NCBI GenBank assembly: GCA_017499595.2
Contig: CM039000.1
Location: forward strand, 2,542,001 to 2,606,000
Reading direction: 5' to 3'
Length of the DNA stretch: 64,000 nt
Source: Psilocybe cubensis
Taxonomy: Eukaryota
Position numbers and translations under genes: made by a program. A model generated the notes under the pieces. That model searched no databases. It worked only from the letters and a program-made list of their open reading frames with translations, and was not told the origin of the DNA. Positions 5,962 to 47,930 of the stretch are shown in pieces. Position 1 is the stretch's first letter, and every line of letters begins with the position of its first letter.

Positions 5962-8863
5962 TTAGAGTTTAGAGGATGGCTCTCCAAGAGCATATAGCGC
6001 GTCCAACTCCTTTTTGTACATGTTGTACGCATCTTTGCGGCGAACTTTCATCGTAGGCGTCAAAGTGTTATTCTCCACGCTGAACATGGTAAGACTGAGG
6101 TGAACTCGCTTGACAATTTCGAATCTACAATGTAGGTTATATGTGTTCAGATTGCAGGAAGATTTCACGCAGTTGAATGGTAACGCATACCCTTTGAGGC
6201 CATTCTGCTTCCCGATTTTCATCAACAGTGATTCGACGTGGCTAATGACACGACTATCCTTGCAGGCAGCGGCAAGAGCGGCGACGTCCTCTGGGGCGAC
6301 CTTATTGCCCGTGACGCTGGAAACAATGCCAGAAAATTGGACTGGATCGGGTACAATGACTGCGATCAAGAACGACTGCAGACCATCACTGTGGACATAA
6401 ATCTGCGCAATCAACGGCGTGCTGCTATAAACATTCTCAATCTTCTCCAACGCGACATACTCTCCCTGAGCAAGTTTCATGATGTTCTGCGGGTTTAGAC
6501 AAAAATTACTCCTTAGCATCATACAGACGCGCGTCGTAATGGACGATGGACATAACTCACCTTGACACGATCGATGATCTTTACACGACCACATGAGTCA
6601 AGTTCCACGACATCTCCGGTGTGAACCCAGCCTTCTTCATCCACGGTTTCCTTGGTATTCTTTTCGTCTGTCGCAACTTTTAGACATGTCAACGGAATAA
6701 TTGGGCGTTTGCGTACCCTTATAATACGTAGTGAAACAGTTTGCACCGCGTACGCACAACTCTCCTCTGGGGTTAGGTTTATCCTCAGAAGTATAATTCA
6801 TGGCGGGCACATCGACCAATTTGATTTCGTTGATAGGCTGGGGAGGCCCAACCGTACCACTTCCTGTAGGGTCATTGGGCCACACCTTGCACGTAGTCGC
6901 GCAATTTTCAGTCATGCCGTATCTAATTTGGCATACAATTAAGGATCATTTTAGAAGCAAAGTTTATGCGGTGTCAACTTACCCTGGGAAAGAATGTTGA
7001 AGTCAGCCATGTGTATACACAAAATTTCGCAAAAGACACATCAACTCTTCACTAACCTTCTGCAACTTCGCATGCAAATGCAATTTTGAGGAAATCCATT
7101 ACATCAGAACTGATGGGTGCCGATCCGCTGGTTACGAGTTTGATACGCCCACCAAGAACAGCTTGAATCTGGTCGCAGAAGATACTGAGACAATTTTTAC
7201 TTTGCAAGTTCAATGTGACGAACCTTGCGGAAAACGAGTCTGTCCCAAAATGCATGCGTGACTTCACCAGTCTGGTGGAGGGTGGCAAGCTTAGTTTGTA
7301 CCGCCTTATTAAACAAAATGCCTTTAAGACCTGGCACATTGCCGCCAACCATTGCGGCTTGATATACCCTATTTAGTACACGAGGTACGGAGGGGAAGAA
7401 ATTGGGTCTTAGAATTTGAGCATCTTCCAGAAGGCGCAGAGGGTCTCCAGTAAAGTAACCAATTTGCCCTCCAACGGCAATAGTGCAAAGTTCGCAGACG
7501 CGCTGTGCCAATGTGAGACAAATTTATCTCGACTGTTCAGGGGCATACCTCATAAATATGAGCCAATGGAAGGTAAGACAGCAAACAAGCGTCTTCGGGG
7601 AGCATTAATCCGTACATGTTGCTATGGGTTGCAACGGCCAAGTTCTTGTGCTTCAGAACGACACCTGTGGAAAGATGATATGAGTTACAAGAAATTGATA
7701 TCAGATGTTCAATAAATTACCCTTGGGGTTATTGGTTGTTCCCTATGGTCCCAGTTAATTCTATGCTACATCTAAAAATCGCTCTTTGACTCACAGAGGT
7801 GTAGCAGATAGATGCAACGAGATCCGGATAAGCAGGAATCGGTTCAACATAGTTTGCTTTGCCAAAGGCCTCGACTTGACATTACTTGTGGTTAAAATCT
7901 TTCCAGTGGAATAATTATGCTACTCACGTTCAGCGAACTCCTTGAAGATCAATCCTTGAGATTCAGACCATTCCCTGAGCAATTTAGAGGCTTCGGCAGA
8001 GAGTGGGTCCATGCAGACGATGGCCTTGAGCATAGGGACTCGATGGGCGGTCTTCAACAACAATGGAATGTGTTCAGATGTTGCGAAGATCACGGTGAGA
8101 TGTGAATGTTCAATGCTAAAATAGAATTAGTTGCGTCCAGTAAAGTAAAAATGAAGAAAATACATGTATGCTAAGGTCAAGTTAGTACCACATTGATTTG
8201 CGATCTTTCGGCGAGCACGCACCAACAGAATCCTTGCCAAGGGTATCATACAAACTGACGGACACCTTCTGGTAGCTCTGTAGAGCAATATCGACAATTT
8301 GCCATTCTGCACTCGTGTCAGTTACCAAAATTTAGTAGTCAGGAAACGAAGTGTACATACCAGGACAATTAGGAGCCCAGATTCCAACAGTCGGATATTC
8401 GCCACCACCAAGAACACCTTGTGTGAACAGTGTGTGAACAGCACTGCCAATATGACGCCTCTTGACATCAACTTCCCCGTAGGTCTGCCATGTGTACGTA
8501 GGAGCAAACTTCAAAGGGTTGGTGGAGAGGATGGGGCGGCGACCCAAGAACGGCTTATTCTTGCTCTTGAGGAGACCTTCGGCGAAGATTTGGTCCAAAG
8601 TAACAAAAAGGTCAGGAGCGGTCTCTTCAACGAGACCCCAGATGCCTACAAAAGGTTAATATATGTTTGGCATTTGAAGTTGGTATGCGACACACCGTTG
8701 CGGTAATGAGCTGAAAGTAGTCAAGTCAGCTACTTGTAGGCGCTGCTATAAATTTGGGGAACCAACCTGTTTGGCCGGGACGCTTTGTGCCGGGTACGGC
8801 AACGGATTGCTTATCGTATGGCATGACTGTGGGCCATTGGGCAACTCGCTCGCTGATAGACAT
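5962..8863 (-). CDS. Long-chain fatty acyl-CoA synthetase (Faa2/ACSL-like), PTS1 -SKL
   Basis: Spliced motifs CYTSGTTNNPKG, SYLPLAHIYE, GSAP, EGYGMTE, GWVHTGD, IIDRVKNIMKLAQGEYVA, LTPTMK. C-terminus ...EPSSKL; ATG at 8863. Confidence 0.95.
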
Positions 8864-29651: not shown

Positions 29652-30710
29652 ATGCTCCTCTTCCGCAATTCCCATCTGCTCCCCCGTTTGTCCTTTCAGT
29701 ATCGCACAATGAAGGTCGTACCGGTTCCTGTGCGCGAAGATAACTATGCGTACTTGCTCATAGATGAATCTACCAACAAAGCCGCTGCCGTCGATCCGTA
29801 TGATGTTCCAAAGGTCGCGGCAGCCGCCCACGAACATGGAGTCGAAATCGTCGCAGGCATCACCACTCATCACCACTTTGACCATAGCGGAGGTAACAAG
29901 GTCTGTATAGCTCCACGCTGCTTCGAAATGTCCTTGCATGCATGCTGAGCCTTTCCAGGAATTTGTATGTCCTCCAATTGATCATATCTCAGAGGGGTGT
30001 CCAATATATTTCCCAGGCATCCAAGTATCCAGACGCGTTCATTTATGGAGGCAGCGATAAGGTTCCAGCGCTGACGAATCTTGTCAAAGACAAGGATGAG
30101 TTTACGATAGGAAACAATATTCGCGTCAAGTGAATACCACCCATCCATTTATCGATCGTACCGTTCATTCATTCCATGAACCTAGATGCCTGGCAACCCC
30201 CTGTCACACACAAGAGTCAATTTGCTATTACGTCACTGATGCAGTTGAAGGCACTCATCCTGGTGGTGTCTTTACTGGAGACACCCTCTTCATCGCTGGC
30301 TGTGGCCGATTCTTTGAAGGTGTTGGTGCAGAGATGGTCCGAGCTCTCGATTATCTCGAAACACTCCCGCCAAAGACTATCGTCTACAATGGTCATGAAT
30401 ACACAGCTGGCAGCCTGGCATTTGGAAAGCATATCGACCCTGAAAACCCGGCCTTAGCCAGACTTCAAGAAATTACCAGGAACAACAAAATCACCACTGG
30501 GCTAACTACCATTGCAGACGAAAAAGAATGGAATGTGTTTATGCGCCTTGAGAGTGATGCTGTTAGGTTCGTCATAGTCCCTCAACATTCAGGTACAGCT
30601 CCAAACTTACAGAAAATTCGAATAGAAAGGCCACTTCGGCGACCAGTGACACCCCCAAAAGTGCTATTATGGATGCACTTCGAGAACAGAAGAATAAATT
30701 CAAGGGGTAA
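29652..30710 (+). CDS. GLO2: Hydroxyacylglutathione hydrolase (glyoxalase II)
   Basis: DNYAYL, THHHFDHSGGN, TPCHT, FTGDTLFIAGCGRFFEG, GHEYT, EKEWNVFMR. An alternative 3' end to 30773 is described in findings. Confidence 0.95.
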
Positions 30711-30943
30711 GTTCATGGTTAGCATAAGCACCATCAGACATTCCTTGTGCAAGTTCACAGACCCAAATTGTAATCCAAATCCGAAATGAATACATATATA
30801 ATTATGGTAGCAAGTAAAAGCATACATCCGGACCATCTTCGCGCGTGAGCCGATTTTGGGAATCTTCAGAAAGGAACTAGGTACGTGGAAGCGTTGCATA
30901 GTGCAACTCTGGGGATTGTACATTGTCATGTGGGTCGTCCTCA

Positions 30944-31816
30944 TCAGCCTAAGCCAACAGCTTTTGTGACAGCAGCTCGAGCGTAAGGGATATATGACAG
31001 GGTGTACCATGTGTAAGCTAAAAATTCGATGAAGACGAAAACTGTGGACATAAACCATTAGCCCAGGTTAAACTATTCTGTATTTTAAAACCAACTTACT
31101 CAGGCATAGAATCTGATTATTGAGATAGACAAGTTAGCATTAGCACAACTTAATTAGAGAACAAAAACTTACACCGTTGTTCAATACGAAGGCTCCAACC
31201 AAAACGAGGCCGATGGAAGCAATTAATACGATGGAAGCAATTACGCGTACAGGTTTGAACATCTAGAGGTATTGCGTATTGGTGATCTGCGCCACCATTA
31301 GCGCTATACACAAAAACACTCACCAGTTTGGCTTGTTTAAAGAACTGTTGAAATGCCAAAGGTAAATTACCCCCAGAAAAAGAAACAAAGCTAACAAACT
31401 CACTCCAATGAGGAAGCCAGTCCCAATGAGGGATACTATAGTTCCCAGAACGTAGAGGACTAGGTGGTAAGAGTAAGCACTCTATATCATGGACAAAGCA
31501 TAACGACGTACTAGCAAACAAGACCGTCATGCCAAAGATAAAGACCACCGTTCCCAGCAAGCTCAGCACGAACCCAGCGATGAGACTGCATGCGCAACAG
31601 ACAAGGAGAACAACAGGGCAGCCAGTCAGCTATCCACCGGGTTCACCGGAGGAATAAGTTAAGGGTATTGAAAACTCACCAGCCAGCAAAACCATAGAGT
31701 CGCGTAGTCCGTGATAGTCCGAGAGACTTGAACGCTGAGTCACCTTCAAAGAAAGAGGTATCCGGGATGACGCTGGATCCCGACTCGAGATTGAACCACC
31801 CTTTGCCTGGGGCCAT
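30944..31816 (-). CDS. Got1/Sft2-family vesicle transport membrane protein
   Basis: Spliced LSRTTRLYGFAGC, GTGFLIG.FKQAKLMFKPVR, WYTLSYIPYAR; four hydrophobic segments. Confidence 0.88.
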
Positions 31817-46351: not shown

Positions 46352-47930
46352 ATGCCCTCTTCCGCCCCCGTCTTCTCCACACCTCTTACGCGATTGTTCA
46401 AGATCAACCACCCCGTCATGCTGGCTGGGTATGTTCATGTCTGCTGAGTCCGTCTCATTGCATGCTCATCTGTCCATAGCATGAATGTTGCTGCTGGTCC
46501 CAAGCTGGCAGCAGCTGTTACTAATGCTGGTAAGTTTATAGCATTTCTTGTACGCCCTCATATTTATGAACGTTGATAGGTGGGATTGGTGTAATTGGCG
46601 GTGTTCGCCAAAGTCCCAAATTTCTGCAAGGCTCAATCAACGAGCTCAAGAGCCACCTGGAGAATAAAAATGCTCCCTTTGGCGTCGACCTGTTGATTCC
46701 GCAAGTCGGTGGGAGTGCTCGCAAGACCAATGTACGTCCTATATCTCCTCATATGACTAGATGTAACACCAACTCCAGATGGACTATACCGGCGGCCAAC
46801 TTCCCGAACTTATTGATGTTATTATTGAAGGAGGTGCCTCCTTGTTCGTCTGTGCTGTCGGTGTTCCTCCCAAATGGGCCGTGGACAAGTTGCATGCTGC
46901 CGGTATCCCCGTGATGAAGTGCGTCCTTCTATTACCAGTGAAATATAATAGTTAACGATGTTTCGTTAGTATGATTGGCCACCCAAAAGTACTTTATTTT
47001 ACATCCATTAATGCCATATACTCATTGTTTTTACCTCTAGCATGTAGCTAAAGCACTTGCTCAGGGTAAACATATATGGTTCAGTGTAAAATACGCTCGC
47101 TGAACGATTTGTAGGTGTTGATATCATATGTGCCCAAGGTGGCGAAGGTGGTGGTCACACAGGCGACACTGCGTTCTCCATCTTGATTCCCGCGGTCGTT
47201 GACCTTTGCAAAAACGCAAAGAGTCCATTGACAGGCGAGCCTATTCTCGTGGTCGCGGCAGGAGGTATTTCAGACGGTCGGGGCTTGGCCGCTGCTCTTT
47301 CGTAAGTATCTGATTATGGAATTCGCATTGATTAACTAAAAAAACGATTCAGATATGGGGCGTCGGGTGTTTGGGTTGGCACCCGTTTTGTCGCTAGCGT
47401 GGAAGCAGGCGCACCGAAGACTCACAAGGAAATGGTAGTTTCCGCAGGATACGATGATGTCGTACGCACATTAATCTATTCTGGCCGGCCTATGAGTGTC
47501 CGCAGAACGCCTTATGTGGATGAATGGTAAAGATTGCGACACCCTAATTTTTAGATATACTTTAATGAATGTATTCTCACAGGGAAACGAAGCGAAGTCA
47601 AGAAATCCAAACGTTGGTTTCCGAAGGAAAAGTCCCCCATGAAGTCGAAATGCAAAATCACCCTGAAAGATCTCTGGCAGGCAGATCATGTTTGTACTTC
47701 TGTCTTTATATTACAGTACTGTCATTATTCAATGCTTTTCATAGGGCTAATGGGTCGCGTTGCTGGTTCAATTAAGGATATTAAGCCCGCCAAAGAAATG
47801 CAAGTTACCAACGAAATTTTCTATTCATTCTATTTCTAACTAGATATGTAGTGTTGATGAGCTTGTTCAAACCGCCGCCCAAAGTTTAAACGCCGCTGTA
47901 TCTCTCCAAGTTCCACGGCCGAAGCTTTGA
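46352..47930 (+). CDS. Nitronate monooxygenase / 2-nitropropane dioxygenase family flavoprotein, C-terminal -PKL
   Basis: PFGVDLL, AQGGEGGGHTG, VAAGGISDGRGLAAAL, GASGVWVGTRF; many small exons; ends VPRPKL-TGA. Confidence 0.92.

Follow-up and report, generated by a model that had tools for sequence, protein, structure and literature searches.

Cryptic peroxisomal signals of the PTS1 type arise by differential splicing in the GAPDH of Ustilago maydis and the PGK of Aspergillus nidulans (Freitag et al, 2012, as presented in the review PMC3798809), and the review thereby bears out the statement, made in an earlier note on the DNA analysed here, that this mechanism is established for fungal glycolytic enzymes. 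As these cases are described there, a mainly cytosolic housekeeping enzyme has a minor spliced isoform that ends in a PTS1, and the arrangement is conserved across fungi. The same review names the malate dehydrogenase of Yarrowia lipolytica and the hydroxypyruvate reductase of pumpkin as enzymes whose PTS1 is switched by alternative splicing, and the NADP-isocitrate dehydrogenase IdpA of A. nidulans as an enzyme whose single gene supplies the cytosol, mitochondria and peroxisomes (PMC3798809). For the glyoxalase system, a precedent comes from plants: within the part of PMC3355810 that covers these enzymes, glyoxalase I is the only one of the Arabidopsis glyoxalases placed in peroxisomes. That enzyme, the pathway's other member, has no obvious PTS, and glyoxalase II is not reported from peroxisomes in that part of the text (PMC3355810). 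The open-access full-text literature that was searched yielded nothing relevant on a peroxisomal glyoxalase II, or on its alternative splicing, in fungi, and glyoxalase is not mentioned in three texts on dual targeting that were searched for it (PMC4207609, PMC9549241, PMC3798809).

Here we describe a gene in Psilocybe cubensis through which glyoxalase II probably joins the enzymes that receive a cryptic PTS1 by alternative splicing, a mechanism already known in fungi. The gene lies on the plus strand of the window, by which we mean the whole 64,000-nucleotide stretch analysed, and all coordinates refer to that stretch. Translation of a five-exon spliced model gives, letter for letter, the 258-residue protein that NCBI lists as 'Hydroxyacylglutathione hydrolase, mitochondrial [Psilocybe cubensis]' (P0001), and a protein search with exon 4 (30186–30566), which encodes the catalytic core, finds P0001 at 100% identity. 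Because Pfam detects Lactamase_B (PF00753, 1.3e-10) followed by HAGH_C (PF16123, 1.8e-20) in P0001, the gene is an ordinary glyoxalase II. Exon 1 (29709–29900, with the annotated ATG at 29709) encodes THHHFDHSGGN, which we take to be the metal-binding THxHxDH motif of glyoxalase II, and residues T53, H54, H56, D58 and H59 are the same in all of 40 aligned orthologues. By its family, glyoxalase II or hydroxyacylglutathione hydrolase with a metallo-β-lactamase fold, the P. cubensis protein is a predicted S-D-lactoylglutathione thioesterase.

The exon boundaries were read from sequencing contigs as well as from the model. Five runs contain the stretch, and four of them were compared with it. Contigs of two of the four (X1 and X2, from one study) carry the joints of constitutive introns and are therefore RNA-derived, and the other two (X3 and X4) yielded unspliced DNA contigs. 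The introns removed in the X1 and X2 contigs are 29901–29958, 29965–30016, 30130–30185 and 30567–30625. The first two of these flank exon 2, a 6-nt micro-exon GAATTT (29959–29964, encoding Glu-Phe) that is required to match P0001; in the contigs of both runs, AATTT separates the two sides of joint 29901/30017. Exon 3 spans 30017–30129, its ends also given by contig joints, as are the end of exon 1 and the ends of exon 4. In the short form, exon 5 (30626–30710) ends ..KNKFKG, with a TAA at 30708–30710, in the sequence, in the model and in the contigs of X1 and X2. The Glu-Phe of the micro-exon is missing from several aligned orthologue models (e.g. P0004, P0010, P0021, P0024, P0038, P0044, P0067 and P0102), and the Psilocybe cyanescens model reads KASEF at this position; the micro-exon was probably missed in the annotation of the models that do not have it.

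At the 3′ end of the gene, the window reads TTCAAGGGGTAAGTTCATGG...GTTCACAGACCCAAATTGTAA (30699–30773). The reading frame closes with TTC AAG GGG TAA, the hexamer GTAAGT occupies 30707–30712, and the third base of the Gly codon together with the entire stop codon falls within the donor GG|GTAAGT. The candidate intron that starts there (30707–30760) is 54 nt long, runs from GT to AG and ends in CACAG. Joining 30706 to 30761 brings in a terminal mini-exon (30761–30773), A CCC AAA TTG TAA, whose first base completes the Gly codon and whose remaining codons add Pro-Lys-Leu and a stop (30771–30773), for a protein of 261 residues that ends ..KNKFKGPKL. The perfect donor over the stop codon, the 54-nt intron and the PKL tail had all been pointed out in the earlier note, and each is exact in the window sequence. 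At the sequence level, the architecture is that of a cryptic PTS1, in which the main form lacks the signal and a 3′ splice event would create it (..KFKG* to ..KFKGPKL*).

In this respect the gene resembles those for GAPDH and PGK, from which it differs in that glyoxalase II is absent from the cases listed in PMC3798809 and in that, as read from the sequence, the donor of the final intron contains the stop codon and the added exon encodes just 3–4 residues. It is the place of the stop codon within the donor that sets the gene apart from the known cryptic-PTS1 cases. The presence or absence of a PTS1 would be set by splicing at the 3′ end, as it is in the malate dehydrogenase of Y. lipolytica and the hydroxypyruvate reductase of pumpkin, but in those two enzymes the alternatives lie in the 3′ splice site or in the choice of exons, not in the retention or removal of an intron with a stop in its donor (as summarised in PMC3798809). 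The earlier note had also regarded the lack of a well-placed CTRAY branch motif in the candidate intron as consistent with partial splicing. The motif is indeed absent, but it is absent as well from all four introns removed in the RNA-derived contigs, and the step from a missing CTRAY to partial splicing fails because introns that are removed efficiently lack the motif too. Stop-codon readthrough as a separate route to a PTS1 was rejected, since past the TAA the frame reads VHG and then meets a stop.

At the other end of the gene, an ATG at 29652 opens a frame that continues without a stop to the annotated ATG. The resulting in-frame extension, MLLFRNSHLLPRLSFQYRT (29652–29708), is basic, contains no acidic residues, and aligns with the annotated N-terminal extensions of P0015 (MICRRHIRLFPHIPSQYRT), P0019 (MFSLRQRVPLIPRIASQFRT), P0017, P0021 and P0038. 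The upstream presequence that had been suggested is thus present in frame, with a conserved ATG and with counterparts in orthologues, and from these features it is plausible that the ATG at 29652 supplies an optional mitochondrial presequence. The contigs span the region of this ATG but are fused there with neighbouring transcripts and therefore reveal no 5′ end. Human HAGH, a member of the same family, reportedly has mitochondrial and cytosolic forms that come from alternative in-frame starts, and in P. cubensis an upstream in-frame ATG likewise adds a short presequence. We know of no peroxisomal form of human HAGH, and to our knowledge its C-terminus has no splice switch, in which it differs from the P. 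cubensis gene. With IdpA, the gene would share the supply of three compartments from one locus through an optional N-terminal mitochondrial presequence and a C-terminal PTS1; the PTS1 of IdpA is constitutive, with the choice made by alternative transcription starts, whereas that of glyoxalase II would be optional through splicing (compared as IdpA is outlined in PMC3798809).

We propose that the 3′ end of the gene acts as a stop-or-splice switch, in which optional removal of the 54-nt intron yields a PKL PTS1 and thereby a minor peroxisomal fraction of glyoxalase II, and we hold this reading with somewhat better than even confidence. When the last intron is retained, translation would end at the TAA within the donor and give the ..KFKG enzyme, which would be cytosolic, or mitochondrial when translation begins at the upstream ATG. 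When the intron is removed, the tail encoded by the mini-exon would be recognised as a PTS1 by Pex5, and a minor fraction of the enzyme would enter peroxisomes. There it could hydrolyse glutathione thioesters, either S-D-lactoylglutathione or other S-acylglutathiones; peroxisomes are rich in acyl-CoA and, in other fungi, contain some of the triose-phosphate enzymes. Glutathione can be acylated by acyl-CoA without an enzyme, and the resulting thioesters are substrates of glyoxalase II. We infer both that the 54-nt intron is removed at all in P. cubensis and, by analogy with PKL tails of other proteins, that the -GPKL tail of its glyoxalase II would be imported into peroxisomes.

The best surviving alternative is that the 54 nt are ordinary 3′ UTR with unused splice signals, that the protein always ends ..KFKG, and that the extended gene models of related fungi are prediction artefacts caused by a strong GT[AG]AGT at the stop codon. 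We consider it unlikely, and the RNA-derived contigs are what speaks for it first. The junction 30706^30761, whose presence had been set against intron retention as a check on splicing, is absent from the RNA-derived contigs of X1 and X2 (two runs, one study), which show retention and in which rare variants are lost. One X1 contig is continuous over 30623–31041, with the 54 nt retained and the four other introns gone. An X2 contig ends at 30712, 6 nt into the candidate intron, and the next X2 contig starts at 30735, with 30713–30734 uncovered. The absence of the joint indicates that, in the X1 and X2 samples, removal of the optional intron is far less efficient than that of the other four, if it takes place at all. 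Wherever transcripts could be examined, the short form with the intron retained predominates, and NCBI likewise lists the short protein for P. cubensis.

Besides dropping minor variants, the X1 contig is fused with the transcript of a convergent neighbour on the minus strand. The stretch 30735–31041 of the contigs runs on into the spliced exons of this neighbour, from which introns 31042–31099 and 31113–31173 have been removed; a loose contig end, TCAGGCATAGAAT/ACCGTTG.., corresponds to 31100–31112 joined to 31174 onward. The contigs of the neighbour reach back to about 30735 and so lie antisense over the glyoxalase II mini-exon. Because the contigs continue into the exons of the neighbour, their cover over 30735–31041 may partly come from the opposite strand, which confounds the reading of retention. 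The open reading frame of the neighbour, whose gene lies on the minus strand in the region 30735–31200, has no Pfam match. Judged by similar translated stretches, the neighbour also lies behind the gene in two related loci, L002 and L001, described below. The four runs and the window differ by single bases at 29723, 29807, 29837, 29953, 30359, 30372 and 30713. None of these differences falls on the GTAAGT hexamer, the acceptor or the mini-exon; 30713 is base 7 of the intron and differs in X1 only, and this T>C change may be related to the X2 gap at 30713–30734.

The C-termini of orthologues provide evidence on both sides. Two protein searches and one cluster look-up gave 213 Agaricomycete sequences, from which 28 fragments or mis-ended models were dropped to leave 185, with the motif K[NSD]x[FYHW][RKQ][GAE] at the C-terminus as the condition for inclusion; a further search with the C-terminal 45 residues of P0121 returned 8 proteins, none of them additional. 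Of these orthologues, 165 of 185 end at the Gly of the motif, as the unused-signal alternative would have it, and 20 are extended. The same holds among the 64 transcript-like relatives (those from JGI/Logan assemblies alone), whose open reading frames are intron-less, full-length and on contigs of 1–3 kb and are therefore transcript-derived: 60 end at Gly, and a PTS1-like [SAP][KRM]L tail is found in none of the 64. Retention in the contigs, combined with the lack of tagged sequences among these 64, means that a peroxisomal form is minor, conditional or absent. A minor or conditional PTS1 form is what the glycolytic-enzyme cases lead one to expect, and a non-functional site would look alike.

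Among the 20 extended models, however, 12 end in [SAP][KRM]L, and these represent 10 species in three orders (Agaricales, Boletales and Polyporales). P. cyanescens, annotated in the long form alone, ends ..KNKFRGPKL, which is the tag predicted for P. cubensis. Pholiota conissans and Flammula alnicola end in PML, Galerina marginata in SML and Gelatoporia subvermispora in AAML; Serpula lacrymans, Lyophyllum atratum and Armillaria novae-zelandiae end in PSRL, Pilatotrama ljubarskyi in TSRL, and three strains of Taiwanofungus camphoratus in PARL. With the tails GSL (two sequences), GRL and GHL, a total of 16 of the 20 end in Leu, and the other four are a tail of 26 residues, a single T, KTRNAPKF, and a tail of 27 residues in a Laccaria-like transcript (..RGPQNCSE.., ending CEV). 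The recurring tail in these relatives is PTS1-like by its sequence, in that a small residue is followed by a basic one or Met and the tail closes with Leu.

Several features of these data are difficult to reconcile with signals that are never used. Gene predictors are blind to PTS1s, and yet most of the extended tails, in three orders, have this form. Although their sequences differ, the tails retain the properties of a PTS1, a sign of selection on function; a pattern of this kind goes beyond what a gene predictor alone would produce, and a neutral 3′ UTR would not be expected to keep it across orders. In each of the three T. camphoratus strains, one locus tag carries two annotated isoforms, of 316 residues (..FRG) and 320 residues (..FRGPARL). 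As a control for chance, all 222 combinations of GT[AG]AGT site and phase on both strands of the window were searched for a GT..AG intron of 40–110 nt followed by a tail of at most 5 residues matching [SAPC][KRHM][LM], and a single combination passed, the glyoxalase II stop site.

The 3′ architecture can also be followed in related DNA. A metagenome scan with the very general patterns GCGRFFEG and VFTGDTLF returned 80 loci, of which L001, L002 and L013 were inspected and the other 77 have 31–44% identity. Orthologous DNA that reaches the C-terminus came from L001 and L002 alone, as L013 (52% identity) ends before it. In L002, a genomic locus with 77% identity, the sequence AGG GG|GTGAGT places a TGA inside the donor, and a 64-nt intron leads to TTAG|A CCC CTA TTG TAG, for a predicted tail of GPLL. 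The 3′ ends of L002 and the window were compared by eye and by script, because automatic DNA alignment misplaced the mini-exon owing to the different intron lengths. Both splice sites and the mini-exon are kept despite an intron that is itself poorly alignable, which again argues against unused signals. The more distant L001 (an mRNA-like contig, 65% identity) ends NNFRVSA*, and no usable mini-exon was found in it. The expectation that orthologues would keep the donor over the stop and a downstream tag therefore holds for PTS1-like tails in three orders and for the layout of L002, although it does not hold universally, given that L001 and the Laccaria-like transcript lack the tag. For the cryptic-PTS1 interpretation as a whole, the architecture and a tail conserved in three orders stand in its favour, and the absence of junction 30706^30761 from the contigs and of tagged ends from the 64 transcript-like relatives stands against it.

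A further alternative accepts that the intron is sometimes spliced and holds that the tail is not peroxisomal, either because a 3′-end intron tunes the fate of the mRNA or because the tail has another C-terminal function. It seems to us quite improbable. Consistent with it, position −2 of the tails varies (K, M, L, R, S and H), Gly stands at −3 in GSL, GHL and GRL, L002 would give PLL, and the Laccaria-like tail with its CEV end has no PTS1 form. In addition, PML, AML and PLL are absent from the validated plant PTS1 tripeptides in Table 1 of PMC9542071. Against it, the canonical ends SRL and ARL recur in five species of three orders, and SML and SLL, as well as SRL and ARL, are validated PTS1s in plants (also in the material from PMC9542071). 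PKL itself was sufficient for peroxisomal import in Histoplasma when fused to mNeonGreen (as reported in the relevant part of PMC13343957). PKL also ends the peroxisomal SidI/SidF orthologues of several ascomycetes listed in the corresponding section of a paper on siderophores, which cites it as working in human, yeast and Penicillium (PMC3709128). Its activity as a PTS1 in plants is validated but weak, and basic upstream residues aid it (from the same portion of PMC9542071). The residues that precede PKL in P. cubensis, KNKFKG, are basic. A second enzyme of the window, its nitronate monooxygenase, likewise has PRPKL at its C-terminus, in line with PKL as a signal. Among the C-terminal signals known to us, a PTS1 best matches a near-universal terminal Leu on a very short tail. 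The long form of P. cyanescens has an AlphaFold model with a mean pLDDT of 85.6, in which the last helix stops at residue 255 and a low-confidence coil (256–262) follows, which makes it plausible that the FRGPKL C-terminus is free for receptor binding.

That splicing is instead constitutive, so that every copy of the protein would end GPKL and the short annotation would be an error, is highly improbable: the GTAAGT of the optional intron is the best donor among the gene's five and P. cyanescens is annotated in the long form alone, but contigs from which the four other introns have been removed keep the 54 nt, and the transcript-like relatives overwhelmingly (60 of 64) end at Gly.

If the stop-or-splice switch operates as proposed, glutathione thioesters would be formed and cleared within fungal peroxisomes, and a detoxification step would be tied to acyl-CoA-rich β-oxidation and to the triose-phosphate enzymes that are partly peroxisomal in other fungi. 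The substrates would then be S-lactoylglutathione from triose-phosphate-derived methylglyoxal, or S-acylglutathione from acyl-CoA in β-oxidation. More broadly, we put forward, tentatively and with slightly less than even confidence, that a single glyoxalase II gene serves three compartments across the Agaricomycetes, and that a switch with the stop in the 5′ splice site, conserved across at least three orders, provides a small peroxisomal fraction for an undescribed step that clears glutathione thioesters. Cryptic peroxisomal isoforms escape standard annotation and proteomics, and each new one widens the known metabolism of peroxisomes. As 165 of the 185 models are short, most current gene models of glyoxalase II may miss an isoform. 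The sequence offers a rule by which further cases could be sought, namely a stop codon within GT[AG]AGT, an intron of 50–65 nt, and an exon of 3–4 codons that ends in Leu.

PKL ends were also observed outside this group of orthologues and elsewhere in the window. Two distant glyoxalase II homologues on JGI transcript-like contigs, P0300 (..NNYTPPKL) and P0306 (..NEFKPPKL), have 41–42% identity to P0121, and their sequences suggest that a constitutive PKL end exists elsewhere in eukaryotes. The nitronate monooxygenase gene of the window (Pfam PF03060, at about 47090–47530) had been said to end in PKL too, and its last open reading frame (47844–47930) does read ..VPRPKL*. Its last intron, in the region 47780–47850, may be a GC-AG intron, as the sequence GAA AT|GCAAGT ... 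TGTAG|T GTT GAT GAG would give ..PAKEIVDELV... A 211-residue open reading frame on the minus strand (5962–6597), with no Pfam match at E ≤ 0.01, ends ..YALGEPSSKL*, a canonical PTS1, and this tail presumably resembles the C-terminus of long-chain acyl-CoA synthetases.
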